Shown here one piece after another: positions 4,661 through 33,100 of a DNA stretch of 48,523 nucleotides. The notes beneath the pieces were generated by a model. It searched no databases. It had not been told where the DNA came from and worked only from the letters and a program-made list of their open reading frames with translations. Numbering within the stretch: position 1 is the first letter of the stretch; every line of letters starts with the position of its first letter. The translations under genes and the position numbers were made by a program. Source of the DNA: Fistulifera solaris (lineage: Eukaryota); the NCBI GenBank assembly GCA_030295235.1, contig AP026142.1, positions 806,001 to 854,523 on the forward strand. The letters are read 5' to 3'.

Positions 4661-7290
4661 TTAAAATTGAAGGCACGCTGGACACTTGCCAACGCATGTT
4701 TCCCAAGCACATCGCTCCTCCCAAGATATCTGGGGGTTATTCTTACAATCATCCGGACAAGTTTCGTCCGTAATACAATCGGAACATTGCGCACAGGAAT
4801 CCCACCCGCACTTGGAAGACCACGAATCAGGACTTGCAGAGCACCAGTCGCGACAGTTGCCGTATTTCGCCATCAAGAAAGGATCAAACTCAATAAACTT
4901 TCGAGTATTGGGCCACTTCTCCCAGTCAACCTGTATCGGCGTGCGCGGATGACACAAGTGCACAACGTACAGATCTCGCAACACATTCATGGCGTATCCC
5001 GCTCGATGTAGCTCGTGAAACCATGAAACCTTGTCGTACCCGTATCCACGGATGGCGGTCCAAAAGCGTGGAATTCCGGGTAAATAGCCGATGACATACG
5101 GCTCGTAGGCCAGCTCCCAGTCAATGGGATAGTAAGGCGCTTCCGTAAAGTTGTACCACTTCTCCGATTGTGTGGATCCTTGATTCTTGGGTGTGACATC
5201 GTGATAGATAACCCATGCTGCATTCTTCTCGACCATGTTTATAAGATCATGTTTGGACTTTGGCAAATCGCCTTCGGTTGCTGACTTTTCTGGGGCGTAA
5301 TTAATACCACCCGGGCAAACCTCAAATGCAGGTAACACAAACAGCGTTCGTTTCCGGCGCATCTTGTCGACGATTTGAGGATCTTTTCTCATCAGTCCCC
5401 TAATCGTGGCATGCGAATTCGGAGTGACTATCAGGTCAACATCAAGCAGCAAGAAATAATTGCTACCCGTGTTCTCAAGCGCCAAATTGCGAAGCGCATT
5501 GTAAGGATAAGTCCACTGTATAGAGGCTTCTGGGTACGGCGAGTAATCAACAATTTTTTCCATCAAGACGTGAATATTACTTGCTCGTAAGTGCCAACCA
5601 ATTGTGTGGTTCGATAGCCATGACGATATCAGGTCTACGTCTTCAGAACTTTGAATGTAAAGTGCGATCGAACCAGGTCCGTACCATTTTCGTAGGTTCA
5701 AAATAACATTGTCAAGTTTTGCTAGACTTGCAGAAGCTTGCATCGTGATCACTATATGATCGTCATCTTCGAGCTCAGTCTGTCGATGAATAAAATTGAC
5801 AAGGGTTTTACTTTGAGGCTTGGTGGAATTCAGCGACACGGCATGGCTCTCAAGTTTCTCCCAATGTTCCATTAGCTGATCTTTGTATGTTCGAGGAGTC
5901 CATACCTTCTCGGTCAACATCTTCTCACGCCACCAAATCTCCCAGTCCTTGACTAAGCTCCGGTTTGTTAGATCTTGGATGGTCTTTTCCATCGCATCCA
6001 CTGACGCAATTGTCATGGACTTGCCACTTTTGTGCGAGTTCCCATCGCGGGTTAGCCGACTACTGCATGTTGCCCGCGCCCACCAGTACTCGGTCTCGTA
6101 CTTGATCATGATACCTTCATGCTCCTGGCCACCGGCAAAGAATCCATCTGTCACGCATTTTCGAGGATGTTTTGTGAGTTATAATTGACGACGTACCACA
6201 CAACATTAATTCAAAGCACGAGGCTTGAAGATTCTCAAAGAGTTGACTTACAAGGAACGTCGCCAGTTCGGCGCATATCGCCGTCTTTTGCCATACATGT
6301 GAACATGTTACGCGGCGTACGATGCAATTGCAAATTGTGATGGTTCCACGCTGCTAATAGCAAATGCTCGGGAGATTCAATCGCATAAAATGTTTCATTG
6401 GAATAATCGTTTCGAAGGAAGGGCGGAAGCACATCCAGCGCGTCAAGAATGGAGTCCTTGCTCACGGTGAAGTGTCGATCGTTGATGGCTCCCCAGTCCT
6501 CGCCTTCAGGTACGACAATGGCATTCTTCGGGAAGTCGGATATGTCATATGGGCACATATAGAACTGGTCTGTTCGAGTAACGATGAACCGGTCGTACTT
6601 CTCGGTCAACTTCAGTTCGCGGATGTGTTCCGCCAACCAGTATCGCATCATGTTCTGAATGGCACCAGACGTTTTGTGTCCTTTCACGCCCCCAAGAACA
6701 CCTGCTTCTCTCGCTCGCCCTTGCACGCGAGGCTCAACATTTTCTCTCCATCCATCAATATTTAAAGTGTCTGGAAGTCTTTGATTAGAAGAAAAGTCAC
6801 AATCATGAAAAGCGTTACCTTAACTAAGAAACTCACCGAGAGCATCTCCCCAGTCATCGTATTCTTTCTCTCGGAAGACATACTTGGCTCTTTTCCAAAG
6901 GGACGCGTCGTTATACTTGTCGTCACTCGCACCAACCACTAGACCCAGGTCGGCTTGATTGAAGTCCAGTACATTTTTGTAAAGAGACTCCCACGCTGGT
7001 TCGCCGCAGCGAAGGTTTCCTATCAGGAATACAATGGTGCGATTCTCTTTTGCGGTTGCAAACGAAGCCCGTTCGGAGCAAAGATCATGCGCCTCATCAA
7101 AAATGTATTGCAAAGCCAACTTAAAATCAAAGCACCAATCAAAGCCAACAGAAAATTTCCTTTTTGTCCGTGTTTAAACTGGGACGAAACGCATCTTGTG
7201 AATGTCTCGATAACATTTATCAAAAGCATCAATACACGGAAGAAATGCTTCGTCCAAAGATGAGGCAAGTTTTTGCTTTCTCAAATGCAT
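4661..7290 (-). pseudogene. Glycosyltransferase paralogue A (unassigned N-terminal domain + GT49/LARGE-like domain + Cys/Trp repeats); 5' region disrupted as assembled
   Basis: GT-AG introns 6771-6836 and 6148-6251 join the three ORFs in frame. GT49-like motifs: YPYNALRNLA, FLLLDVD, FVLPAFE, YEPYV, GYGYDK, VVHLCH. The ATG at 7290 gives LDEAFLPCID..., homologous to copy B, but hits TAA near 7175, and the TM anchor lies in another frame. This is either a pseudogene or a sequencing error. Confidence 0.7.
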
Positions 7291-9576: not shown

Positions 9577-12251
9577 CTAGTAAAAATCAAGACAAGCCGG
9601 ACATTTGCCAACACAGAGGCCCCATGCACACCGTTTTTCCCACGGTACACTTTCGGTGTTCTTACAATCATCGGGACAAGTTTCGTCATTGATGCACTCT
9701 CTGCACTGAGCGCATGAATCCCATCCGCACTTGGTGGACCAAGGATCAGGACTTGCAGAGCACCAGTCGCGACAGTTGCCGTATTTCGCCATCAAGAAAG
9801 GATCAAACTCAATAAACTTTCGAGTATTGGGCCACATATCCCAGTCAACCTTTATGGGCGTGCGTGGATGACACAAGTGCACGACAAACAGATCGCGCAG
9901 TACATTCATTGTATATCCGGCCCGGTAAAGTTCGTGAAACCATGAAACCTTGTCGTACCCGTATCCACGAATGGCGGTCCAAAAGCGAGGTACTCCCCGC
10001 AGATATCCAATCACGTAAGGCTCGTAATTGAGTTCCCAGTCAATTGCGTAAGAGGATGCTTCCGTAAAGTTGTACCATTTTTCGGACTGAGTAGAGCCTT
10101 GGTTCTTCACATCTACATCGACGTAGAAAACCCAAGCAACGCCATCTTCAACTTTCTTTACCAGTTCAGCCTTGGTTAAAGGCAAGTCATCCTCTGTTGC
10201 AAATCTTGTGGGTGATTGAGTCATCCCATCAGGGCAAACTTCGAATGCTGGCAAGACAAACATAGTCCTTTTCCGGCGCATCTTATCAATAATTTGAGGA
10301 TCATTCTTCATTATCTCCCTCACCGTGGCATGTGAGTTAGGAGTGATAACCAAGTCTACATCCAGTAAAAGGAAGTAATCACTACCGGTGTTCTCGAGTG
10401 CCAGGTTGCGAAGAGTGTTGTAAGGATACGTCCACTGCATTGTCGGCTCGGGGTAATCAGAAAAATCGGTAATTTTCTCCATCATGATATGGACATTGCA
10501 TTCTCGTAAGTAGTACGCAATTGTGTAATTTGATAACCACTCGGAAAAAAACTCGACATCTTCCGCACTTTGAATATAAAGCGCAACGGATCCTGGCCCG
10601 TCCCATTTGCGCAGGTTAGAGATCAAGTTGTTGAGCTTCGCTTGGCTCGCAGAGGCTTGCATTGTTACAACAATATCATTTTCGTCCTCCAGATTTGTTT
10701 TTCGATGAATAAAATTGACAAGGGTTTTACTTTGAGGCTTGGTGGAATTCAGCGACACGGCATGGCTCTCAAGTTTCTCCCAATGTTCCATTAGCTGATC
10801 TTTGTATGTTCGAGGAGTCCATACCTTCTCGGTCAACATCTTCTCACGCCACCAAATCTCCCAGTCCTTGACTAAGCTCCGGTTTGTTAGATCTTGGATG
10901 GTCTTTTCCATCGCATCCACTGACGCAATTGTCATGGACTTGCCACTTTTGTGCGAGTTCCCATCGCGGGTTAGCCGACTACTGCATGTTGCCCGCGCCC
11001 ACCAGTACTCGGTCTCGTACTTGATCATGATACCTTCATGCTCCTGGCCACCGGCAAAGAATCCATCTGTCACGCATTTTCGAGGATGTTTTGTGAGTTA
11101 TAATTGACGACGTACCACACAACATTAATTCAAAGCACGAGGCTTGAAGATTCTCAAAGAGTTGACTTACAAGGAACGTCGCCAGTTCGGCGCATATCGC
11201 CGTCTTTTGCCATACATGTGAACATGTTACGCGGCGTACGATGCAATTGCAAATTGTGATGGTTCCACGCTGCTAATAGCAAATGCTCGGGAGATTCAAT
11301 CGCATAAAATGTTTCATTGGAATAATCGTTTCGAAGGAAGGGCGGAAGCACATCCAGCGCGTCAAGAATGGAGTCCTTGCTCACGGTGAAGTGTCGATCG
11401 TTGATGGCTCCCCAGTCCTCGCCTTCAGGTACGACAATGGCATTCTTCGGGAAGTCGGATATGTCATATGGGCACATATAGAACTGGTCTGTTCGAGTAA
11501 CGATGAACCGGTCGTACTTCTCGGTCAACTTCAGTTCGCGGATGTGTTCCGCCAACCAGTATCGCATCATGTTCTGAATGGCACCAGACGTTTTGTGTCC
11601 TTTCACGCCCCCAAGAACACCTGCTTCTCTCGCTCGCCCTTGCACGCGAGGCTCAACATTTTCTCTCCATCCATCAATATTTAAAGTGTCTGGAAGTCTT
11701 TGATTAGAAGAAAAGTCACAATCATGAAAAGCGTTACCTTAACTAAGAAACTCACCGAGAGCATCTCCCCAGTCATCGTATTCTTTCTCTCGGAAGACAT
11801 ACTTGGCTCTTTTCCAAAGGGACGCGTCGTTATACTTGTCGTCACTCGCACCAACCACTAGACCCAGGTCGGCTTGATTGAAGTCCAGTACATTTTTGTA
11901 AAGAGACTCCCACGCTGGTTCGCCGCAGCGAAGGTTTCCTATCAAGAAAACGATTGTCCGGTTGCCTCCTTGGGGAAACCGAAGGCCGCTGTGACTAAGT
12001 TTAATGCCATTCGTTAGCAATAGTCGACAGACCCAAATTAGATGAATGCCTCCGATGAATAAGATTAGCAATAGAAGCACTCTGTGTGCAATTTTTCCTG
12101 GAGAAAATCGCACTTTCGGCGCGTCTCGAGAACTTTTATCGTTCGAGTCGTCAATGCACGGCAAGAAGGGTTCTTCTAGCCCGATGTCTTTTCTCGGTTT
12201 TCTCGTATTCACCACCATTTTTGGCGGACTCCGACTGGAAGAGCGCAGCAT
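9577..12251 (-). CDS. Type II membrane two-domain glycosyltransferase, paralogue B (834 aa): TM anchor, unassigned putative GT domain, GT49/LARGE-B4GAT1-like domain, two Cys/Trp repeats
   Basis: Exons 12251-11756, 11689-11171 and 11066-9577 total 2505 nt (835 codons). Introns are 11690-11755 (GTGAGT..CAG) and 11067-11170 (GTAAGT..CAG). TM segment VLLLLILFIGGIHLIWVC; motifs YDRFIVTRTD, YPYNTLRNLA, LLDVD, FVLPAFE, YEPYV, GYGYDK. Confidence 0.88.
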
Positions 12252-16061: not shown

Positions 16062-16793
16062 GGTGAATGATAGTTGATGAAAGAAGTCGTAATACTAACA
16101 AGAAAGCGAAACGAGAGAGATACGATTCGACGGTGTTGCGTAATTGTGAGAAAGTTCTCGGCAAGGATGAGATCCCAGCCACGAAAGTTCAAATGCAAGG
16201 TGTCACCGTTGGCGAGTTTGTCTTTGGAAGAGAGTCGAGAATCGACAAGAAAGATCTTTGCTGAGCCTCACTCGTGTCAACTGTCAAAAAGGTGATGTTT
16301 TTGGTGTCAAGCCGACCGACGACCTCCTCAACTCCGCGCGGCGCTGCTGACCGTTCTTTCAAGCGGGTACCTGTACGGTACCATGTACCTAATCGGTACA
16401 ATCGAAGCGATACGGATTCTGCACCTACGTCATCACATAGAATCGATCTCGAATTGCTCTTACTTGCTACCAGGTATGGTTACAAGTGTACAAGAAGATA
16501 CTCACCTTCCGACCGCGCGATTTTCAAATTTTCGTGGGAAAATTTGCAGTCACGAGTCGTCAGGATCACTCGCGACTCACAGGGACCACGCGATTTGCAC
16601 GAGTTACAACCATGCGATGATGACGTGTCCTAGCAGAAAGCATTTTCAATTGCGCGATGAGCGATGACTCATGATTTTCACGCCAACACATCACATTTGC
16701 ATCATTTTCACACGCAGAAAGCGGGTGGAAAGAGCACAACCTATCGTCACAATTCTGTTCTGTCCCCTGTTTCAACATTACAAAAATAAAATA

Positions 16794-17516
16794 ATGAAGT
16801 TGTCTCTCGCCTTTTTCGCTGCAACCGCTGCAACTGCCGCTGCATTCGCTCCCAGCTCGTCTTTCTCTGCGAAGACTCTTCTTCGAATGTCGGAACCCGT
16901 CAACACGGAGTCTGCCGTTGAAACTGCGGCCCCCGAAAAACCCGCTGCTCCTGCCGCACCTGTCGTTACTCCTATCAACGGATGGGTCCCTGATGCATCC
17001 AAGCCTGCCTTTGGTCTTCCAGGAGCAATTGCCCCTCTAGGATACTTTGACCCTTTGGGTTTGATGCCCAAGAACATTCTTGGTGCTAAGCGATTCAGCG
17101 AGGCCGAGATTATGCACAGTCGTGTCGCCATGATGGCTACCGTCGGCTACCTTCTCGCCGAAAACACGCCTACTATCGCGTATGGCTTCGATCACCCCGT
17201 CATCGCCAACAATATGGTTCCTGATGTTCCAGGAACTGTCCTTTTCCCTTTCTTCTTGGCCATCAACATTGCTGAAGCACTCCGTGCTAACGCTGGATGG
17301 GTTGAGCCTGGACTTGGTGCCCTTTTCACTCTCCGAGAAAAGTACTACCCCGGAGATCTCGGCTTTGATCCCCTCGGTTTGAAGCCTAAGGATGCTCAAG
17401 GCTTTGCCAACATGCAAGCCAAGGAATTGAGCAACGGTCGTCTCGCCATGCTCGCTGCTGCCGGCATGTGCGCACAAGAACTGGCTACCGGAAAGCCACT
17501 TTTGGATGCATTTTAA
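16794..17516 (+). CDS. Lhcx: Fucoxanthin-chlorophyll a/c light-harvesting protein, Lhcx (LI818/LHCSR)-like, 240 aa
   Basis: Bipartite presequence with AAA-FAP; FDPLG; helix 1 EAEIMHSRVAM; GWVEP; YYPGDLGFDPLGLKP; helix 3 KELSNGRLAML. Confidence 0.92.
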   Translation: MKLSLAFFAATAATAAAFAPSSSFSAKTLLRMSEPVNTESAVETAAPEKPAAPAAPVVTPINGWVPDASKPAFGLPGAIAPLGYFDPLGLMPKNILGAKRFSEAEIMHSRVAMMATVGYLLAENTPTIAYGFDHPVIANNMVPDVPGTVLFPFFLAINIAEALRANAGWVEPGLGALFTLREKYYPGDLGFDPLGLKPKDAQGFANMQAKELSNGRLAMLAAAGMCAQELATGKPLLDAF

Positions 17517-18037: not shown

Positions 18038-18212
18038 TGAGCACTTGCAAAAACTGTTGTATCTATCAATGTTTTGCTCCTGTAAAAATATATTTGCACA
18101 TTTGGACCCTCTTGCTTCGTGATTTTTGCTCGGATTGCGTAATGAAAACTGTTTGTGAAACTGTTGTGTTAGTACCTCTCTTATCTACTTGGCACAATAT
18201 AAACATTGTAAA

Positions 18213-19399
18213 GCAAAATCAAGTTGTGCAAGTGCAAGTTGTGCAAGTGCGTTTTGCAAGAAGTGCAAATGCATTGTGCAGGTTGTGCAAGTGCAAGTGC
18301 AAGTGCACTGTGCAGGTTGTGCAAGTGCGATGTGAAAGTTGTGGGAGTGCAAGTGCAAGTGCAAGTTGTGCAAGTGCATTATTCAAGTGCAAGTGCGTTG
18401 TTACGCCAAGTAGTTCAAGTGCAAGTTGTGCAAGAAGTGCAAATGCATTGTGCAGGTTGTGCAAGTGCAAGTGCAAGTGCATTGTGCAGGTTGTGCAAGT
18501 GCAATGTGCAAGTGCATTGTGCAAGTGCAAGTTGTGCAAGTGCAAGTGCAAGTTGTTGGCAAGTTGTGCAAGTGTGTTGTGCATGTTGTGCAAGTGCGTT
18601 GTGCAAGAAGTGCAAATGCATTGTGCATGTTTTGCAAGTGCAAGTGCAAGTGCATTGTGCAGGTTGTGCAAGTCGCGATGTGCAAGTTGTGTGTTGTGCA
18701 AGTGCATTCTTCAAGTGCAAGTGCGTTGTTCAAGTGCAAGTGCAAGTGCAAGTGCAAGTAGTTTAAGTGCAAAATGTGCAAGTGCGTTGTGCAAGTGCAA
18801 GTGTTGTTCAAGTGCAAGTTCAAGTGCAAGTGCAAGTTGTGCAAGTGCGTTTTGCAAGAAGTGCAAATGCATTGTACAGGTTGTGAAAGTGCAAGTGCAT
18901 TGTGCAGGTTGTGCAAGTGCGATGTGCAAGTTGTGGGAGTGCAAGTGCAAGTGCAAGTTGTGCAAGTACATTCTTCAAGTGCAAGTGCGTTGTTCAAGTG
19001 CAAGTGCAAGTAGTTGAAGTGCAAGTTGTGCAAGTGCGTTGTGCAAGTGCAAGTGTTGTTCAAGTGCAAGTTCAAGTGCAAGTAGAAGTTATGCAAGTGC
19101 AAGTTGTGCAAGTGCGTTGTGCAAGAAATGCAAATGCATTGTGCAGGTTGTGCAAGTGCGATGTGCAAGTTGTGTGTTGTGCAAGTGCAAGTTGTGCAAG
19201 TGAATTCTTCAAGTGCAAGTGCGTTGTTCAAGTGCAAGTCGCGTTGTTCAAGTGCAAGTGCAAGTGCGTTGTTCAAGTGCAAGTGCAAGTAGTTGAAGTG
19301 CAAGTTGTGCAAGTGCAAGTTGTGCAAGTAGTGCAAGTGCAAGTTGTGCAAGTGCATTCTTCAAGTTGTGCAAGTGCGTTGTGCAAGTTGTGCAAGTGC
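18213..19399 (+). repeat. Subtelomeric TGCAAG-based satellite, proximal block
   Basis: Concatenated words such as TGCAAG, TTGTGCAAG, TGCATTGTGCAGG, TGCATTCTTCAAG and TTGTGGGAG. Confidence 0.97.
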
Positions 19400-19927
19400 T
19401 GACAAGTATTGCACGTGACCGATTCAAATGGGTTTGAATGATAACGACAATGGGGGATGCGAAGACTTCGTCTACCAACGACGAATCGACTGACGCAAAA
19501 CCAAGACGCCGCAGTAACGGCCGAAGAAAACGCAATGAACGTAACAACAACAACAATTACTCTGTCAGTACCGAAATACCACAGAGAGGACGCTTGTGAA
19601 GAACCTTTACCACCAACGATCAACAAGATGAAGATGCGGTAGAAAAATTAGGTATTATAAGGACTTGTCGTTGATGAAAATCATCAAGCGACAATACGAT
19701 CGCATGGCATCAAGAGTTGTCAGCCACACGATTAATTAAACTACTTAAACTAATACAGTAAACAAAAATACTGTATAGAATCCAACATAGATTCCTTGAC
19801 ACCAAAGTGGACACGTCATTGAAGGAACAACGTCACTCAAGGTTCAGGACTGATATCGATCCCCCGATCGGAGCGTGCCACTCACGATTCAACCCTCGGG
19901 ACTCGTAATCAAAATAATAACTTGTCA
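19400..19927 (-). repeat. 3' LTR of copia element 1
   Basis: Near-identical to 26652-27182, has TG...CA ends, and abuts the PPT. Confidence 0.95.
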
Positions 19928-19943
19928 CTCCCCATTTTCCTTC
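19928..19943 (-). other. Polypurine tract (PPT)
   Basis: The minus strand reads GAAGGAAAATGGGGAG immediately before the 3' LTR. Confidence 0.9.
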
Positions 19944-19999
19944 AATGGCGTATAGATATATAAGAACATAAAGGTCGCGGCTGCCGAAACGACAGTCAG

Positions 20000-22900
20000 T
20001 ACACTTGCAGCAGAATATGTACTCTTGAGGGAACAATGACTTTAACCATTACCCATTGTCGCCGGGAAACGGAAGATTCGCCGGACATCCCTGGAATCCA
20101 GAAGAGCAACGGCCGTAGCGTATTATGCCACACCGCTTGGTATGCCCAATGTTTGCTCACTATGTCGGCTGCATTAAACTTCGCCAGGCATGTGATAAAA
20201 TCCAACCATCCCGCTAGCCACTGCTTCCCGAACTCGATGATAAGAAAGCGGTGTGTCTCTTATTCAATTTTCCATGTGGCGTACTAGCTGTGTCGATGAC
20301 GGTTTTATTATCACCAAAAACATAACTCTTTTCACGGATAGGGACACCCAAATATCGCAGCGTGAAATCAATGATTTGTTCAACACATGTTCTTGCCGGC
20401 TGTATATTCACTTCCAAAGGTGGCGGTTTCGACTGTTGCTTGTTTCTTCGAATACCACTCGATAGGCTGCATTCATTCAGGAAATGAAGAATACCTGTGA
20501 CTGATTTTCCCGTTAGAGTGCAATGCATAAGGTTTGCATCGACGTAGTGAACTGTGGTCACAAACTTTCCCAAGGCTTTGGGCGCGTCATGCGGAATTTC
20601 TTCTTTCGTGCCGCCATACACAGAGTACTTCCAGTCGTGCCCGGGATCCGGGATTGCCGAAAAATCAGGCTCTTTTGTCCGAATGCAAATGGCCGCGTTC
20701 CGCATGCAAAATAGATAGCCATAAATTCTCTTGGCTCGTTCCAAATGGCCTCTACGAGGTGCAGCTCGGAAAGACGATAGCGTCATTACAGCTGTCATAA
20801 TGTCGAAACGACCAATGGTGATGACCCACTGCAAAGCACCGATAAGCGACTGATACTTTTTAATTCCCTCTTCGTCCAATAGTTCGGACATATCGGTCTC
20901 GGGATGATCGCCAGGCACTAAAGGGGGAGTGGTAAGTCCTTTTGGCTTTTCACCAAAAAGTGTCTCATACGCTTTCATCATCCTTTCGATATACTTTCGC
21001 GGCGCATAACAAAGGTGTCCTTCCCCGTCGCTGAAAGAAATCCATACCTAGATGATACGAGATTGGACCGGTGCCTTTGAGTTTGAACTTGTGGGTTTCG
21101 GTAAGTTCTGTAACGATACTCATTGGATCCCGTGCAGCGATGGCAATATCGTCTACATAGACAGCGACGTATTCGTAGAGACCCTCATTTTCCCTCATCC
21201 AAATATCTGGCTCGGCTTTAGAAGGGAAAAAACCCATCGTGCGTAGTACATCTGCGAATCTCTCGTGCCAACGTAGGCCAGACGTGCGAAGGCCATACAG
21301 GGCTTTATTAATAACAAGGATATGCCCCGCACGCGCGCCAAAACTTGGTCCAGCGATGAAGTAGAGTTTCTCCTTGGTAAAAGCCTCGAGGTAGGCATTG
21401 CCGATGTCCGTTGCATAAAGAATGAGCTCATTAAGTTCCGAGATAAAACAGACAATGCGTAAACCGCGAAGAGTGACGACACCCGAATAAACTGACTCTA
21501 AGGGTATAGGTGTAAGATGGCCACCTGCAACTAATCGCGCCTTATGTCTACCGTCATGCTTAACGTCGAAGACGAAATGTACTCTAATCTTACGATAACC
21601 TTCTGGGGGTTTACATTTGTCTTTGTGCCCGTTATCGTGAAACGTGTCGTACTCGTCTAAAGCGCCAATTTCAAGGTCAATCGAGTCTCCCCATAGCGTA
21701 TTGCCGTTGATTCGATCTAGCCTCGCTGCGTCTTCCTCACTTAGCGCAATTTCATAACCGAACTTGTATTTCTTTGAGCTGCGGTAGTTTTGAAGCTTGG
21801 CCTGTTTGACGATGCGGCTAAAAACTTTGTCGTTTTGTTTAGCGATTTTCTTGAAAGATTTCCATCCATCTAAGTGCATAAGCTTGTGCTCGCGTGCATA
21901 GATGGCACATTCGACTGGAGCATCCTTTTGAAGATATTAAGCGGCTCCCACGTGGTCTCGCCATTTTCCCATTCGACTTTTACGTTATATAATGACCCTT
22001 TGTAGTTGGGGTCATCCGGTTTCAACGGGCCCTGATGATCAGAGATTGAACGGAAACGCCAATAAACCTCGTCATCGCCCTGATTCTCGGCGAGAAGGTC
22101 CATAAGTTCTTGGTATGACAGAATCTCTTCATACTCATTGTTATTCACGGAACATCGGAACTTAACGTGATCCGGCGATGTGTCGTGACTATTTTCGAAA
22201 TCGCCTAGAGCTTCAATGACGGTAGCTCGAAATCGTTGCCCGTCGTCACGGGGCTGTAGTAGAAACGAACGTCCCTGTAGATCCGAGTAGTTTTTAATTG
22301 GTGCTGCGCGCCACAACGTTTCTGCGGTGTTACTAGGACCGTTACTACTATCATTAGGAGTATCACCTAAAACGGGGCTATTCACACATGAACTCTCCCA
22401 CGGTGTGGCTCGGCGCCAGTTGGGGTCTGCATCGGTCACAGGGCGTAAATTGGAACGCAGAAGGATCCGGCCCGTGTCGGCAGAGAGGATTTTGTAGGTC
22501 AAAGCGTGCCCGACGTTATCAGAAATTCCGACCATGTATCCAAGTCCTTCACGGGTTGAAGTAGGAAAGGTGCTATCGTCTAATTTGTAGTAGACTTTCT
22601 GGTAGAAGTGAAAGCGAAGGAAGACACTAATGTCGGGTGTAGAACCGGTGCATCGTTGAAGAGGGACGCCATCAATACTATCATTGAAAACATGGCTCAA
22701 GAGGGAAGCCGTATACTGGAGGGCGAGCAACCAAAGGTCCGGTGGAAGCCCGTGCGGTCCATGATGGTATTACAGGAAGTCTTTAAATACTGTATGGTCC
22801 GGCTCAGCGGGATTTTGATGTTGGTGGGCCGGCTCACTTTGCCATTCGCCGATATAGAGAGTACGAAGAATATGCTGAACTTTTAAACTGGTTTCGACCT

Positions 22901-25841
22901 TAGCACTATCACTGATGAGGCGGTTGGGGCGCCACGCTCGCGAATGACATCCTCGAGGGTGTTAACAAACTGCGACTCAGTTTTGAGAGGGTAGACATCA
23001 ATGACCTTAGAGGTCGTACCGACAAAGATTTGAGCCATAGTAACACCAGAGTCAATAGCAGGACATTTCGCGAAAGATTGTATCAGTAGCCAAATCTTCG
23101 TTGCGGCGAGTAACATTTAAGCGCGGGATGGGGCGACTTGAAATGTTTCTTGAGAATAGTACCACCGGGAAGATGGAGAGTACTGTGTAGTATGCTGAAA
23201 AGTCTTACGAACGGTTTCCACACCTAGCCAACCCAAGAAAGGACGAAGCTCGGCGTAGTCTTTCTTTCCAGGGGTGACGTTGCGGCCAGGAAGAGGTGGC
23301 AAGTCGGGAGTGACGTCAGATGTGGGGTTCGTGGAGTCGGTCCCGAAGACTTGGAGCACAGGTGACGTCATAACCATAGCGGGTAGATGATGATAATGAG
23401 CAAAGGCACCGACTACATCGTCAAGTGATGTTAAAACTTCGGCAAACGGCGATGGAAAATTACGCGGATTATTTGTAGACATAAAATTAACATCGAGGGA
23501 GGTATGAAGCCTAGGTCGCCCGAACTAATGTAGCACCAAGTGCGTCGGAAGCGAAGATCGTTATCAAGCTCCCCATCATGGCAAGAATGGGTGGAATGAG
23601 ACGCGACAGCGCGGCCAAAATAATTTCCGCACTCGTCAAACAGAGTAGTGCGGCGAAAAGCATCATGCTGTTCCGTATCCAGGTCGGTGGGTGGGTCGCG
23701 GTCAAGATCAGCAGGGTCCCACGAATGTTCATCAGTCATGATAAGATGTGGGAGAAGATCATATTCGGCATCGGTAAACGGGCGGATCGGTAGGCGTTGG
23801 AAGCGAAGGGGAATCACATGCCCATCCAGCGTGGTAATACGTTGAGTACCGCCTACAGCAAGGGATCGATCGTCCACACGGTTACGGAAGGATTCCAGCT
23901 GAGCAGAAGAATGAATTGATGAACCACGGCCGATGTAGGCATAGTTATGGAATATGGCGATGCGAGGGCCAAGTTGAGTATCAATAACCCCACCAACCGT
24001 GGCGATTGGGACTGAATTCATCATATGATTATCAATACCTTGGATATCGACAGTATGGTGGGGAGAACGTGAAATGAGGCGAACATCATCACCGGCCACA
24101 CCCCCGTTAGCACCACGGTCAACCAAGGAGAGAGCAGGTTCATGGTCATGTAGGGAGACAAGATAACGAACTGCATTAACTTCCCTAGGTGCTGACGTAG
24201 CAGGTCGAGATGACGGCACACCCAAAAGCGGACATGGAAGCCGGGTGGGGTGGACGTTTTCCATTAGGGAATGCGGCACTACCACTATTTCCACCACTAG
24301 AACCAGTACCGTTTGTGACTAAAGGTGTAGTAGTAGCCGGTTCAGGGGAGAAGGAAACATGTTTGTCTTCACCTAGGGAAGAGTTACGTTCACTATCATG
24401 AGCGAAAACGGAAAGAAGGTCTCCAAGTTTAATATCATGAATATTAGCGTGCAGCTGTACTGCTGTTTCACGACCAAGGATAGCCGCACGTCCCGAGGAA
24501 GAGATAGAAAGCCAACCACGGCGGTCATTCTCAGTTAATGAAGACCAAGTGGTACTATCGACCGTGGTGCCGTTGTCCGCTGATTGCGATCAGTAGCGTA
24601 TGTGTCGTGAAAGTTTCTCCTTCCTCAACGTAGTTCCCATCGTACGATACCAATTCACCAATTTCGTGTGAGTAGACCTTTCGCGGTGGAGGAAAATTCT
24701 TGGTAAACTTGGAGTGTTTCGAAGATGGAAATTCCTTATCGTACGTTTGGGCCTGCGTCTTAAGTAACTCAGTATATGAGTCGAAGGTAGGAGGCGTGTC
24801 CGTAATGGATTCGATTCTGTTCCGCAATTTGGCCGACGGTACTGAAAGCCGATATACTGGACATCAACTGTTTCGCCAAGTTGAGCTTGACCGCCTCAGT
24901 AAGATCGCCAGTTCCGTTAGTGAGTTCGTAGTCACGAATCATACCGACCCACTTAAGAATAAAGTGTTCGGTAGATCCGGTCCAGGGAGTAACGCCATAA
25001 CGCCAAGAGATAATATCTTGCAACAAACTATTAGATGCAAATTCAGCGTGAGGCGGAATTAGTGTAATAGTTAAGTAAAGACATAAAAACTTGCTGAGGC
25101 GGTTACATCATTTCGTGAGAAATGATTCGGCTACCGGAGTCTTTAACGTCGCGAGCGAAAATTGACATCATGACTTCCTGTTTCGCGCAGAAAAGAGCAG
25201 CACTTTCAGAAGACATCGGCTCATAATCCGGATTGAGTACGTCCGACATGTCCTGGGCCTTGGCGTGGAGCCGGAACTCACGTAGCCAACTGTGCCATTC
25301 GGGCGACCCGGAAGACAGGGTAAACGGTGGTGTCGATTTTGATACTCTGCCGGAAATAATCCGGCTGGGGATTTTGTGGGCTTAGGCGTGAAAGTTGAAG
25401 GTACTATGGTAGCACCTCTTCGCATGGGGGTCCGAAGGTCCGTATCGTTAGCAAATGTGGCTGGAGAAGTAGGAACTGCATCTCCAATATCGCTACGCCG
25501 GAAATCTAGAAACCCTTCAGCGGCGTGAGTTGGAGATATCCGTCCGGGCCCATAGGTGGGAGGGAGCGGCAGAAACGAACCCATGTTCGAAAAGTACTTA
25601 GAGCCAGGGAGAAGAATCGGCGTTTTCTTCTTAGACCGGGTAGTTTGCAAGCCTGAATGTCCTGCTCACAAAAACCACGGAAACAGTCAACGTCATCCCA
25701 CCCGTTTTCAACAAGCGCTAAGTAGAGTGTAGAATCTTTGTTGAAGCCAAGGATGACCTCAAGTCACGTGGTCGAAGGGTCGCGCGTAGTGAGTCGGCAT
25801 GCAGCGTCCTCGACTTCTCGTTCAATGAAATCGTCAGACAT
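20000..25841 (-). pseudogene. gag-pol of copia element 1, broken by multiple frameshifts as assembled
   Basis: Likely ATG at 25841 (MSDDFIE...FDHV/LEVILG). Protease LVDRGANGG (~24120); integrase (AQIFVG, EDVIRERGAP); RT KHDGRHKARLVAGGH, TDIGNAYL, ALYGLRTSG, YVDD; RNase H YVDAN, FGDN, NAADIVSKHW. The 3' end is approximate. Confidence 0.9.
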
Positions 25842-26637
25842 CTTGGGGAAAGTTAGTTGTCCAGCTAACTTATCAGAGGAATGTCTCTTTGCTCACGGGG
25901 TGAACACGAAGGCAGAAACACTACTGCGTGCACGATATGCTGTGGTTGTGAAAGAGGAGAAACTTGCTCCTATCAAGTTTCTGCAGGCGTTGGAACCACT
26001 CTTTCCAGCTGTCTCTATGAACTTGAGTGGTGTGCGAGAAACACTAAACAAATAGTTGTCGCCGGGAAAGTAATAAATACTATCCTCACACCAGTTCACT
26101 GAAACTACGACTAGACAGGCCCTAGCCGCTCTCTTTATAGGGCGAGAGAAACCTAACCAAGTACTTTCGAGCCTCCGTAGGCTTCGCCCTAGTACCCGAG
26201 GGGCGCTAAATTTAATTCCAGGCTTTCGCCGAGGAAACCCTGCACCTATCTGACGAGCCAGTAAACTGACTACCAGACCCAGTACACACTCCGACAAACT
26301 CCAGCTCGATACAACACGGGGCGGGAAGAACTCGGTGGAATTCCAGGGGGCAACTCAACACGTCGTCCGACGGGCCGAAGAAGTAGAGCTCTCACGCGGC
26401 GGAAAGCCAATATAAACGAGGGAATTCCGGTAGATCGTCAGAAAACGTTCGCTGGGGCTTATCTTCCTTCGATTGAGACAGCGAATGGACCTTTCGCTGT
26501 TTCTGTAGGAGTGTTTTGAAGAAGAGCAGCGGACACGGGTAAGTGCCAGTGACGACGCAAAAAATAACGGAACCGTTATGAGTGAACAAACAGGTGTTCG
26601 TTCTCTATCGGCCGAATCCCAGTAGCGGACAAGTCGA

Positions 26638-26651
26638 TGCGACTGTTAATC
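26638..26651 (-). other. Primer-binding site complementary to the tRNA-Asn(GUU) anticodon arm
   Basis: The minus strand reads GATTAACAGTCGCA directly after the 5' LTR. The + strand TGCGACTGTTAATC parses as stem TGCGA, loop CT-GTT-AA, then TC. Confidence 0.8.
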
Positions 26652-27182
26652 TGACAAGTATTGCACGTGACCCGATTCAAATGGGTTTGAATGATAGCGA
26701 CAATCTGAAGGGGGGCGGATGCGAAGACTTCGTCTACCAACGACGAATCGACTGGCAAAACCAAGGCAGCGCAGTAACGTGAAGAAGCGCAATGAGCGTA
26801 ACAACAACAACAATTACTCTGTCAGTACCGAAATACCACAGAGGGCGCTTGTGAAGAACCTTTACCACCAACGATCAACAAGATGAAGATGCGGTGAAAA
26901 ATTAGGTATTATAAGGACTTGTCGTTGATGAAAATCATCAAGCGACAATACGATCGCATGGCATCAAGAGTTGTCAGCCACACGATTAATTAAACTACTT
27001 AAACTAATACAGTAAACAAAAATACTGTATAGAATCCAACATAGATTCCTTGACACCAAAGTGGACACGTCATTGAAGGAACAACGTCACTCAAGGTTCA
27101 GGACTGATATCGATCCCCCGATCGGAGCGTGCCACTCACGATTCAACCCTCGGGACTGCGTAATCAAAATAATAACTTGTCA
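26652..27182 (-). repeat. 5' LTR of copia element 1
   Basis: Direct repeat of 19400-19927 with TG...CA ends. Confidence 0.95.
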
Positions 27183-30100
27183 AGTGCGTTGTGCAAGTGC
27201 AAGTGCAGGTCGCGTTGTGCAGGTTCTGCAAGTGCAAGTGCGTTGTTCAAGTGCAAGTGCAAGTAATTGAAGTGCAAATTGTGCAAGTGGTGCAAAGTGC
27301 AAGTGCTAGTTGTGCAATTAGTGCAAGTGCAAGTTGTGCGTTGTGCAAGTCCGTTGTGCAAGTGCAAGTGCAAGTTGTGCAAGTCGTTGTGCATGTTGTG
27401 CAAGTGCAAGTGCATTGTGCAGGTTGTGCAAGTCGCGTTGTGCAAGTGCGTGCAAGTTGTGCAAGTGAATTCTTCAAGTGCAAGTCGTTGTTCAAGTGCA
27501 AGTGCAAGTGCAAGTCGTTGTTCAAGTGCAAGTGCAAGTAGTTGAAGTGCAAAATGTGCAAGTCGCGTTGTGCAAGTGCAAGTGTTGTTCAAGTGCAAGT
27601 TCAAGTTGTGCAAGTGCAAGTTGTGCAAGTGCGTTTTGCAAGAAGTGCAAATGCATTGTGCAGGTTTTGCAAGTGCAAGTGCAAGTGCATTGTGCAGGTT
27701 GTGCAAGTCGCGATGTGCAAGTTGTGGGAGTGCAAGTGCCAGTGCAAGTTGTGCAAGTGCATTCTTCAAGTGCAAGTCGCGTTGTTCAAGTGCAAGTCGT
27801 TGTTCAAGTGCAAGTGCAAGTAGTTGAAGTGCAAGTTGTGCAAGTGCAAGTTGTGCAAGTTGTGCAAGTGCATTCTTCAAGTTGTGCAAGTGGGTTGTGC
27901 AGGTTCTGCAAGTCGCGTTGTGCAAGTGCAGGTCGTTGTGCAGGTTCTGCAAGTGCAAGTAGTGCAAGTGCATTGTAGGGGTTGTGCAAGTCGCGTTGTG
28001 CAAGTGCAAGTTTTGCAAGTGCATTGTGCAAGTGCATTTTGCAAGTGCAAGTGCAAGTGCAAGTTGTTGGCAAGTTGTGCAAGTGCATTGTGCAAGTGCA
28101 AGTCGCGTTGTGCAAGTGCAAGTAGTTTAAGTGCAAGTTGTGCAAGTTGTGCAAGTGCATCTTTAAGTTGTGCAAGTCGCGTTGTGCAAGTTGTGGGAGT
28201 GCAAGTGCAAGTGCAAGTGCAAGTGCAAGTGCAAGTTGTGCAAGTGCATTCTTCAAGTGCAAGTCGTTGTTCAAGTGCAAGTTGTGCAAGTCGTTGTGCA
28301 AGTGCAAGTGTTGTTCAAGTGCAAGTTCAAGTTGTGCAAGTGCGTTTTGCAAAAGTGCAAATGCATTGTGCAGGTTGTGCATGTGCAAGTGCAAGTGCAT
28401 TGTGCAGGTTGTGCAAGTCGCGATGTGCAAGTTGTGGGAGTGCAAGTGCAAGTGCAAGTGCAAGTTGTGCAAGTGCATTATTCAAGTGCAAGTCGTTGTT
28501 ACGCCAAGTAGTTCAAGTGCAAGTTGTGCAAGAAGTGCAAATGCATTGTGCAGGTTGTGCAAGTGCAAGTGCAAGTGCATTGTGCAGGTTGTGCAAGTCG
28601 CGTTGTGCAAGTGCAAGTCGTTGTGCAGGTTCTGCAAGTGCAAGTAGTGCAAGTGCATAAGTTTTGCAAGAGCGTTGTGCAAGTGCATTTTGCAAATGCA
28701 AGTGCAAGTGCAAATTGTTGGCAAGTTGTGCAAGTGCAAGTCTGCGTTGTGCAAGTGCAAATGCATTGTGCAAGTGCAAGTGCGTTGTGCAGGTTGTGCA
28801 AGTCGCGATGTGCAAGTTGTGTGTTGTGCAAGTGCAAGTTGTGCAAGTGAATTCTTCAAGTGCAAGTCGTTGTTTAAGTGCAAGTCGTTGTTCAAGTGCA
28901 AGTGCAATTCTTCAAGTGCAAGTCTGCGTTGTTCAAGTGCAAGTGCAAGTGCAAGTCGTTGTTCAAGTGCAAGTGCAAGTGCAAGTCGTTGTTCAAGTGC
29001 AAGTGCAAGTAGTTTAAGTGCAAGTTGTGCAGTGCGTTGTGCAAGTAGTGCAAGTGCAAGTTGTACAAGTGCATTCTTCAAGTTGTGCTAGTCGTTGTGC
29101 AAGTTATGCAAGTGCAAGTGCAAGTCGTTGTGCAGGTTCTGCAAGTGCAAGTAGTGCAAGTGCATTGTGCAGGTTGTGCAAGTGCAAGTTGTGCAAGTGC
29201 AAGTTTTGCAAGTGCGTTGTGCAAGTGCATTTTGCAAGTGCAAGTGCAAGTGCAAGTTGTTGGCAAGTTGTGCAAGTGCATTGTGCAAGTGCAAGTCTGC
29301 GTTGTGCAAGTGCAAGTAGTTCAAGTGCAAGTTGTGCAAGAAGAGCAAATGCATTGTGCAGGTTGTGCAAGTGCAATTGCATTGTGCAGGTTATTGCAAG
29401 TGCAATGTGCAAGTGCATTGTGCAAGTGCAAGTTGTGCAAGTGCAAGTGCAAGTTGTTGGCAAGTTATTGCAAGTGTGTTGTGCATGTTGTGCAAGTGTG
29501 TTGTGCAAGAAGTGCAAATGCATTGTGCATGTTTTGCAAGTGCAAGTGCAAGTGCATTGTGCAGGTTGTGCAAGTGCAATGTGCAAGTGCATTGTGCAAG
29601 TGCACTGCATGAAGTTGTGCAAGTGCATTCTTCAAGTGCAAGTCGTTGTTCAAGTGCAAGTGCAAGTGCAAGTCGTTGTTCAAGTGCAAGTGCAAGTAGT
29701 TTAAGTGCAAAATGTGCAAGTCGTTGTGCAAGTGCAAGTGTTGTTCAAGTGCAAAATCAAGTTGTGCAAGTGCAAGTTGTGCAAGTCGTTTTGCAAGAAG
29801 TGCAAATGCATTGTACAGGTTGTGCAAGTGCATATGCATTGTGCAGGTTATTGCAAGTCGCGATGTGCAAGTTGTGGGAGTGCAAGTGCCAGTGCAAGTT
29901 GTGCAAGTGCATTCTTCAAGTGCAAGTCGTTGTTCAAGTGCAAGTCGTTGTTCAAGTGCAAGTCGTTGTTCAAGTGCAAGTGCAAGTAGTTGAAGTGCAA
30001 GTTGTGCAAGTGCAAGTTGTGCAAGTGCAAGTTGTGCAAGTCGCGTTGTGCAAGTTATTGCAAGTCGCGTTGTGCAAGTGCAAGTCGTTGTGCAGGTTCT

Positions 30101-33100
30101 GCAAGTGCAAGTAGTGCAAGTGCATTGTAGGGGTTGTGCAAGTGCAAGTTTTGCAAGTCTGCGTTGTGCAAGTGCATTTTGCAAGTGCAAGTGCAAGTGC
30201 AAATTGTTGGCAAGTTGTGCAAGTGCATTGTGCAAGTGCAAGTCGCGTTGTGCAAGTGCAAGTAGTTCAAGTGCAAGTTGTGCAAGAAGTGCAAATGCAT
30301 TGTGCAGGTTGTGCAAGTGCAAGTGCAAGTGCATTGTGCAGGTTGTGCAAGTCGCGATGTGCAAGTTGTGGGAGTGCAAGTGCAAGTGCAAGTGCAAGTT
30401 GTGCAAGTGCATTATTCAAGTGCAAGTCGTTGTGCATAGAAGTAGTTCAAGTGCAAGTTGTGCAAGAAGTGCAAATGCATTGTGCAGGTTGTGCAAGTGC
30501 AAGTGCAAGTGCATTGTGCAGGTTGTGCAAGTGCAATGTGCAAGTTGTTGGCAAGTTGTGCAAGTGTGTTGTGCATGTTGTGCAAGTCGTTGTGCAAGAA
30601 GTGCAAATGCATTGTGCATGTTTTGCAAGTGCAAGTGCAAGTGCATTGTGCAGGTTATTGCAAGTCGCGATGTGCAAGTTGTGTGTTGTGCAAGTGCATT
30701 CTTCAAATGCAAGTCGCGTTGTTTAAGTGCAAGTGCAAGTGCAAGTGGGTTGTTCAAGTGCAAGTGCAAGTAGTTTAAGTGCAAAATGTGCAAGTCGTTG
30801 TGCAAGTGCAAGTGTTGTTCAAGTGCAAGTTCAAGTTGTGCAAGTGCAAGTTGTGCAAGTCGTTTTGCAAGAAGTGCAAATGCATTGTACAGGTTGTGCA
30901 AGTGCAAGTGCATTGTGCAGGTTATTGCAAGTCGCGATGTGCAAGTTGTGGGAGTGCAAGTGCAAGTGCAAGTTGTGCAAGTACATTCTTCAAGTGCAAG
31001 TCGTTGTTTAAGTGCAAGTGCAAGTAGTTGAAGTGCAAGTTGTGCAAGTCGCGTTGTGCAAGTGCAAGTGTTGTTCAAGTGCAAGTTCAAGTGCAAGTGC
31101 AAGTTATGCAAGTGCAAGTTGTGCAAGTCGTTGTGCAAGAAATGCAAATGCATTGTGCAGGTTATTGCAAGTCGCGATGTGCAAGTTGTGTGTTGTGCAA
31201 GTGCAAGTTGTGCAAGTGAATTCTTCAAGTTGTGCAAGTCGTTGTTCAAGTGCAAGTCGTTGTTCAAGTGCAAGTCGTTGTTCAAGTGCAAGTGCATTGT
31301 TCAAGTGCAAGTGCAAGTTGTGCAAGTGCAAGTTGTGCAAGTAGTGCAAGTGCAAGTTGTGCAAGTGCATTCTTCAAGTTGTGCAAGTCGTTGTGCAAGT
31401 TGTGCAAGTCGCGTTGTGCAAGTGCAAGTGCAAGTCGTTGTGCAGGTTCTGCAAGTGCAAGTAGTGCAAGTGCATTGTTGGGGTTGTGCAAGTGCAAGTT
31501 TTGCAAGAGCGTTGTGCAAGTGCATTTTGCAAGTGCAAGTGCAAGTTGTTGGCAAGTTGTGCAAGTGCATTGTGCAAGTGCAAGTCGTTGTGCAGGTTAT
31601 TGCAAGTCGCGATGTGCAAGTTGTGTGTTGTGCAAGTGCAAGTTGTGCAAGTGCATTCTTCAAGTGCAAGTCGTTGTTCAAGTGCATTTTGCAAGTGCAA
31701 GTTGTGTGCAAGTTGTGTGCAAGTTGTGCAAGTGCATTGTGCAAGTGCAAGTCGTTGTGCAGGTTATTGCAAGTCGCGATGTGCAAGTTGTGTGTTGTGC
31801 AAGTGCAAGTTGTGCAAGTGCATTCTTAAAGTGCATGTGTGTTGTTCAAGTGCAAGTGCAAGTCGTTGTTCAAGTGCAAGTGCAAGTGGTTGAAGTGCAA
31901 GTTGTGCAAGTAGTGCAAAGTGCAAGTGCTAGTTGTGCAATTTGTGCAGAAGTGCAAGTTGTCGTTGTGCAAGTCCGTTGTGCAAGTGCAAGTGCAAGTT
32001 GTGCAAGTCGTTGTGCATGTTGTGCAAGTGCAAGTTGTCGCGAGTGCAAGTGCAAGTGCATTGTGCAGGTTGTGCAAGTCGTTGTGCAAGTGCAAGTGCA
32101 AGTTGTGCAAGTGAATTCTTCAAGTGCAAGTCGTTGTTCAAGTGCAAGTGTGTTGTTCAAGTGCAAGTGCAAGTCGTTGTGCAAGTGCAAGTCGTTGTTC
32201 AAGTGCAAGTGCATTCTTCAAGTGCAAGTCGTTGTTCAAGTGCAAGTTGTGCAAGTGCATTGTGCAAGTCGTTGTGCAAGTAGTGCAAGTGCAAGTTGTG
32301 CAAGTGCATTCTTCAAGTTGTGCAAGTCGCGTTGTGCAAGTCGTGCAAGTCGTTGTGCAAGTGCAAGTGCAAGTGGGTTGTGCAGGTTCTGCAAGTGCAA
32401 GTAGTGCAAGTGCATTGTTGGGGTTGTGCAAGTCGTTGTGCAAGTGCAAGTTGTGCAAGTGAAGTGCAAGTGCAAGTCGTTGTTCAAGTGCAAGTGCAAG
32501 TGCAAGTCGTTGTTCAAGTGCAAGTGCAAGTAGTTTAAGTGCAAAATGTGCAAGTCGCGTTGTGCAAGTGCAAGTGTTGTTCAAGTGCAAGTTCAAGTGC
32601 AAGTGCAAGTTATGCAAGTGCAAGTTGTGCAAGTCGTTGTGCAAGAGATGCAAATGCATTGTGCGGGTTATTGCAAGTCGCGATGTGCAAGTTGTGTGTT
32701 GTGCAAGTGCAAGTTGTGCAAGTGAATTCTTCAAGTTGTGCAAGTCGTTGTTCAAGTGCAAGTCGTTGTTCAAGTGCAAGTCGCGTTGTTCAAGTGCAAG
32801 TCGTTGTTCAAGTGCAAGTGCAAGTTGTGCAAGTGCAAGTTATTGCAAGTAGTGCAAGTGCAAGTTGTGCAAGTGCATTCTTCAAGTTGTGCAAGTCTGC
32901 GTTGTGCAAGTGCAAGTGCAAGTCGTTGTGCAGGTTCTGCAAGTGCAAGTAGTGCAAGTGCATTGTTGGGGTTGTGCAAGTGCAAGTTTTGCAAGAGCGT
33001 TGTGCAAGTGCATTTTGCAAGTGCAAGTGCAAGTTGTTGGCAAGTTGTGCAAGTGCATTGTGCAAGTGCAAGTCGCGTTGTGCAGGTTGTGCAAGTCGCG

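Follow-up and report, generated by a model that had tools for sequence, protein, structure and literature searches.

In LTR retrotransposons, primer choice is characteristic of the lineage and sets the host RNA on which their replication depends. The Hemivirus-type copia elements, namely copia, Ty5, Osser and 1731, are defined by priming from a half-tRNA at its nucleotide 40, and primer type and the reverse transcriptase (RT) tree do not coincide (PMC1181622; statements on this and the other cited papers refer to the accessible parts of their text). Half-tRNA sites have already been published for Ile, Tyr, Asp, Lys and Arg. Among the plant lineages, Bianca carries a site for 1/2tRNA-Ile, and Osser, Bryco and Gymco-II for 1/2tRNA-Met (PMC6317226). 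The primer of FunCo1 is an internal stretch of tRNA-Lys (PMC5445492), and the Candida gamma/Tca2 families use internal tRNA-Arg(UCU) (PMC4139406). tRNA-Asn-GTT has been reported for the fungal Helenus non-autonomous LTR elements (Kojima 2024, PMC10886601), and the accessible text of that study names no autonomous Copia element using Asn. For copia elements of diatoms, we found no description of a primer site in the literature searched (journals other than subscription journals); the main text of the study of the CoDi elements (Maumus 2009, PMC2806351), as far as accessible, contains 0 occurrences of tRNA or ‘primer binding’.

The window analyzed here is a stretch of 48,523 nt of DNA, and the element at positions 19400-27182 on its minus strand is a degenerate Ty1/copia LTR retrotransposon. 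In the sense of the element, all of whose features lie on the minus strand, the upstream copy of the target-site duplication GCACT (27183-27187) stands directly before the TG of the 5′ LTR (26652-27182; 531 nt, with termini TGACAAGT...ACTTGTCA), and the predicted primer-binding site GATTAACAGTCGCA (26638-26651) lies flush with this LTR. The coding region begins with a gag-like ORF piece (25103-25381) and a protease-region ORF piece (23431-24318), both without a Pfam family; the latter has 67 homologs at E ≤ 0.001 and is labeled from its position and from the motif LVDRGANGG, judged by eye. These are followed by integrase-like pieces frameshifted over two frames (22770-23116), with integrase-core-like motifs recognized by eye only, and by a copia-type RT (20965-21936; PF07727 RVT_2, E 3.6e-28) with 2343 homologs at E ≤ 0.001. 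The ORF 3′ of the RT (20214-21047) is RNase H by position; it has no Pfam family and matches the C-terminal portions of proteins that carry RVT_2, P0112 being one of them. A polypurine tract, GAAGGAAAATGGGGAG (19928-19943), lies immediately 5′ of the 528-nt 3′ LTR (19400-19927), whose CA end abuts the downstream copy of GCACT (19395-19399). Comparison of the LTR pair gave 513 identical positions in 520 aligned pairs (98.7%), with 10 gap events. Just one of the 11 minus-strand ORF pieces of the element has a Pfam family, which is RVT_2. Since the reading frames are broken in several places, the window copy is dead, and its primer site is therefore a record of past use.

The retrotransposon is inserted within a degenerate satellite of GTGCAA/GTGCAAGT units that extends over 18200-19394, 27188-41330 and 46500-48523 (TRF periods 15, 18 and 36, about 62% matches, GC skew +0.35), and the target duplication GCACT is satellite sequence. 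A second non-satellite block in the array (41335-46500, GC 0.52-0.55) has no LTR pair and no inverted repeat, and two short ORFs tested from it have no Pfam family. Elsewhere in the window, a tandem duplicate about 4.9 kb apart on the minus strand (4661-6154 and 9577-11073) has a Glyco_transf_49 ORF in each copy, accompanied by upstream ORFs at 6235-6726 (a weak DUF7796 match) and, as its counterpart, 11154-11645. The gene neighboring the element at 16671-17516 encodes a light-harvesting protein (LHC; PF00504). Among its homologs, all 13 rows that bear organism names were interpreted as diatom genera, the names being partly incomplete. Judged from this gene and its named homologs, the host is a diatom.

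On the plus strand of the window, positions 26638-26651 read TGCGACTGTTAATC; in the sense of the element, the site begins at the first base past the terminal CA of the 5′ LTR. TGG is absent from the first 15 nt past this LTR, so that there is no classical full-tRNA (TGG-initiated) site there. The 14 nt are exactly complementary (14/14) to positions 27-40 of tRNA-Asn(GUU). Both points had been made in a sequence-only reading of this DNA, which also described the arm as a stem TGCGA, a loop CTGTTAA and then TC, as in yeast, and likened its end point to that of copia and Ty5. These observations hold: real tRNA-Asn(gtt) arms have this layout, as detailed below, and nucleotide 40 is the Hemivirus end point according to the accessible part of PMC1181622. 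The 14-mer has one occurrence in the window, and allowing up to two mismatches gives 2 matches against 0.38 expected, a count that 4 of 100 shuffles reach. By our own arithmetic, done without a tool, the probability that the 14 nt at one fixed position match some stretch of about 50 tRNAs in full (14/14) is about 1e-5. A tRNA gene search of the window itself returned none.

The identity of the arm rests on tool results and not on the yeast sequence. We completed the stem to 17 nt, scanned the viral contigs of IMG/VR and obtained 97 loci for gene calling with ARAGORN. tRNA-Asn(gtt) was called over the 17-nt arm in 95 of the 97 (58/60 and 37/37), and the two exceptions, L002 and L019, had no gene called. 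The 17-nt motif is the anticodon arm in viral tRNA-Asn genes, in which the preceding bases are ...GAGCG, i.e. G at position 26 and C at position 25. The window bases differ from tRNA-Asn at positions 26 and 25, which limits the pairing to exactly 27-40, and at the other end the last A of the LTR is unpaired with G41 of tRNA-Asn.

The tRNA-Asn of the host was assessed in three sequencing runs, of which X1 is the only one with the element (0.68 of the sampled words), X2 and X3 having next to none. When the runs were compared with a 76-nt tRNA-Asn gene (L092:273-348) at 80% likeness, two contigs of X1 matched and none of X2 or X3. The first, of 414 nt and depth 26, covers positions 294-336 of the query with three other letters and no gaps. 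Its unmatched ends, GGGACTATTAGCTCAGTAGG before and GCCATGGTCCGCTCTTTTTGTC... behind, give an acceptor stem paired 7/7 (GGACTAT with ATGGTCC), a D arm, the discriminator and a T-run terminator, and by these features the contig is a nuclear-type tRNA-Asn gene. The 3′ strand of its T stem is CCGCC and the 5′ strand of the query is ACTGG, so the 5′ strand has to change at two positions relative to ACTGG, or at three without a G-U pair. Since such T-stem changes account for the three differences, the anticodon arm of this contig would be unchanged; if the T stem holds a G-U pair, one of the three differences could fall elsewhere. From the difference count and the T-stem pairing, it is very probable that the arm is the same in the nuclear tRNA-Asn of the host, which agrees with what the sequence-only reading had supposed. 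The second contig is tRNA-Asn-like, has a depth of 220 and AT-rich flanks, covers positions 281-322 of the query with five other letters and is probably organellar.

The 16-mer made of the terminal CA and the site, CAGATTAACAGTCGCA, has at least 120 occurrences in at least 119 metagenome loci, and 2-kb flanks were retrieved for 80 of these loci. Grouped by flank similarity, the occurrences fall into 60 flank-unrelated clusters among the matches listed. In 29 of the 60 clusters (again among the matches listed) the CA is preceded by TGT, TAT, TAA or TCT, that is, by LTR-like ends, versus about 4 expected. Because tblastn matched few of the 120 listed occurrences, only 4 with the window ORFs and 10 with stored homologs, we iterated an HMM from the gag-like ORF of the window (25103-25381) and ran it downstream of the motif with an antisense control. 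Downstream sequence of 600 nt or more is present for 56 of the listed occurrences; the HMM matches 27 of these 56, which belong to 9 of the 60 clusters, and gives 0 antisense matches. The sequence-only reading had looked to conservation of the motif among copies, and the motif does recur at the LTR junctions of many diverged elements, including the 9 clusters with a homologous gag. These matches were chosen by the motif itself and thus show recurrence in diverged elements, not frequency or family share. In a wider set of 39 clusters with T-rich LTR-like ends, defined by nine LTR-end types in place of the four above, the 14-mer is followed by a purine in 31, by C in 3 and by T in 5 among the matches listed. 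With a purine as the usual next base, pairing rarely reaches G26.

The proteins encoded downstream of the motif are as poorly covered by Pfam as those of the window. The longest sense ORFs 3′ of the motif gave 66 entries of at least 100 aa, from which 58 ORFs, one per locus, were searched; the eight entries left out are five 100-aa end pieces, a duplicate entry of L177 and those of L121 and L122. Pfam found no retroelement family and no gag in the 58 ORFs, as in the window. The sole matches are a PHD finger (L106), V4R (L134), a HAD hydrolase (L144) and an IS transposase (L162), and the 16-mers of the last two loci are chance occurrences in bacterial DNA, not primer sites. A Protein Atlas search with the gag ORF of L109 returned unnamed clusters as the nearest, and the named zf-CCHC and Ty gag score only 0.78.

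A few loci differ in their context. Eight (L111, L112, L122, L128, L136, L137, L159 and L200) share conserved surroundings of the 16-mer that lack an LTR-like end; this context includes human gut contigs, has long ORFs without a Pfam family and is unrelated to retrotransposons. The 16-mers of this conserved cluster are not primer sites. On one 12.5-kb contig, the junction copies L120 and L121 have identical flanks and are separated by 7443 nt, an arrangement that resembles elements in a tandem array. The spacing in L177 is just 506 nt, with both junction copies preceding a single gag, which suggests either a miniature element or duplication of an LTR-end/leader unit. In addition, (G/A)TTACGCTC directly follows the 14-mer in the flank-unrelated L099, L196 and L205, with near matches in L102/L202 and L215. 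It is present in 3 of the 60 clusters among the matches listed versus 1 of 280 control windows. These strings form a short hairpin, (G/A)TTAC...GTAA(C/T), and include the complement of tRNA positions 22-26.

Relatives chosen independently of the motif came from a search of genome contigs by RT similarity only, which gave three loci, L217, L218 and L219; among viral contigs the search for RT relatives gave none. L218, at 1410 nt, is too short to contain the junction, leaving two informative relatives. L219 and L217 have RTs 55% and 60% identical to that of the window element, respectively, and each carries the gag domain of the window together with RVT_2. In L219, the order is AAAGGGGAG, an LTR of the form TGACAG...CTGTCA and then GATTAACAGTCTTG; in L217, ...TTTGACA is followed by GATTAACAAGTCTTG, which is GATTAACAGTCTTG with one extra A. 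Complementarity to the Asn loop and to positions 30-31 and 39-40 is retained in both sites, and the remaining stem positions are different. Of 57 viral loci with the corresponding arm, CAAGACTGTTAATCTTG, 46 were called as tRNA-Asn(gtt) over it and one as Ala, and 10 had no gene called. The L219 site is therefore the 14-nt complement of positions 27-40 of a second natural tRNA-Asn arm, and an Asn-type site stands at the LTR junction in 2 of 2 informative RT-selected relatives, one exact and one with an extra base. The L217 and L219 sites suggest that the site may co-vary with the tRNA-Asn arm of the host.

All three RT-selected loci are eukaryotic copia elements filed inside bacterial MAGs (Sphingobacteriaceae, Aeromonas and Weeksellaceae). 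L217 and L219 are whole elements whose contig ends overlap (by 137 nt at 93% and by 139 nt at 100%, respectively), as happens when an assembler collapses an LTR element into a circle. RVT_2 is all that Pfam sees in this lineage (window 21870-26354; L219 3038-7027; L217 1-4800). L219 has an intact stretch of 1330 aa upstream of its RT, and there too gag, protease and integrase are without a Pfam family. Pfam rve (integrase) was found neither in the window element nor in the intact relatives L219 and L217, and a PDB sequence search with the integrase region of L219 returned nothing relevant.

We read the site as a probable minus-strand primer-binding site for a 3′-truncated cytoplasmic tRNA-Asn(GUU) of the host, used in priming of the copia/Ty5 type, and give this reading a probability of roughly 0.8. 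By analogy with those elements, a cut in tRNA-Asn between nucleotides 40 and 41, within the anticodon stem on its 3′ strand, would leave a 5′ fragment of 40 nt. The final 14 nt of this fragment would then anneal to the site, and the RT would extend the 3′-OH of C40 through U5-R to yield minus-strand strong-stop DNA. G26 is commonly dimethylated in eukaryotic tRNAs, and we infer that the inner end of the complementarity at nucleotide 27 may be set by a stop of the RT at modified position 26 while it copies the primer in plus-strand synthesis.

The same complementarity would be needed if the primer were a pre-existing stress-induced tRNA-Asn half and transposition were gated by stress or nitrogen status, a tie that the sequence-only reading had put forward as speculation. 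In its favor, tRNA fragments of several classes occur in P. tricornutum, some of them enriched under iron starvation (PMC4247016), and Blackbeard is induced by nitrate limitation (PMC2806351); Asn, however, has 0 occurrences in the accessible main text of PMC4247016. A site flush with the LTR requires a 3′-OH at nucleotide 40, which lies in the stem. The cut that yields stress-induced tRNA halves falls inside the anticodon loop, a few nucleotides short of this end, and not at 40/41. The tie to stress or nitrogen status is unsupported, and we regard a stress-derived primer as unlikely.

Less probable again is that tRNA-Asn binds the site without priming, in packaging or another role, while the element primes itself or uses another primer. 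Priming by tRNA-Asn is predicted here from the sequence, and some copia lineages do without a tRNA site, such as fungal GalEa with its hairpin site (PMC5445492) and plant TAR, which is predicted to self-prime (PMC6317226). Against this, the site is flush with the CA of the LTR, where a primer site must be, and the lack of a TGG-type site in the first 15 nt argues against another classical primer. Self-priming of the Tf1 type is likewise unsupported: within the LTR, the longest stretch complementary to the 25 nt that open the leader spans 8 nt, a length attained by 67 of 500 shuffles, and it falls outside the 14-mer.

It is more improbable still that priming is due to a different RNA sharing the 14 nt, for instance an organellar tRNA-Asn, of which the contig of depth 220 in X1 is probably a case. 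The nuclear-type tRNA-Asn gene fits without any change of the arm, and retrotransposon particles assemble in the cytoplasm, which speaks against an organellar primer. Chance resemblance without function, the least probable reading, could appeal to a match of only 14 nt in a dead copy, but the match is exact and at the single position proper to a primer site, an Asn-type site is present in both informative RT-selected relatives, and recurrence of the junction in 60 flank clusters among the matches listed, 9 of them with a homologous gag, makes it very unlikely.

With a truncated host tRNA-Asn as the preferred primer, a broader reading can be offered tentatively, at somewhat less than even odds. 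The tRNA-Asn(27-40) half primer could be lineage-wide, and perhaps ancestral, in a large copia lineage associated with diatoms and abundant in aquatic metagenomes; the site would track the arm of the host, and its span would be set by the 40/41 cut and the stop at G26. Under this broader reading, the stem may be GCA/TGC in the window host and TTG/CAA in the hosts of L217 and L219. If it is true, these elements could be recognized simply by the site, and the processing of tRNA-Asn would be a candidate point of their control.

Among the described systems, Drosophila copia and yeast Ty5 are alike in having a copia-type RT, a site flush with the 5′ LTR, a complement of the anticodon arm and an end at nucleotide 40 (PMC1181622; PMC10886601, citing Kikuchi 1986 and Ke 1999). 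Their primer is the initiator tRNA-Met, whereas that of the window element would be the elongator tRNA-Asn(GUU), and their priming has been shown by experiment, whereas that of the window element is inferred from its sequence. Bianca, Osser, Bryco, Gymco-II, FunCo1 and Candida gamma/Tca2 are, in the accessible descriptions, likewise copia lineages with a lineage-characteristic half-tRNA primer, but they differ from the window element in their tRNAs and in the kingdoms of their hosts. The fungal Helenus elements and the Copia families of rust fungi (PMC10886601) have fungal hosts, and the Asn case among them is a non-autonomous element, whose likeness to the window element lies in the tRNA assignment. 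The CoDi elements (PMC2806351) are similar in being copia-type elements of a diatom host.

With Ile, Tyr, Asp, Lys, Arg and Asn cases in print, both the half-tRNA kind of priming and elongator primers are known, and the priming mechanism is not new in kind. The suggestion of the sequence-only reading that an elongator half-tRNA primer was undescribed therefore falls, given the Ile, Tyr, Asp, Lys and Arg sites and the tRNA-Asn-GTT assignment for Helenus. The 14-nt signature should be useful to annotators, as it is missed by standard TGG-based primer-site finders. The Asn-type sites in the window element, in dozens of environmental families and in two RT-selected relatives would fill the primer gap for copia elements of diatoms, and would add tRNA-Asn to the primers of autonomous half-tRNA-primed copia elements.
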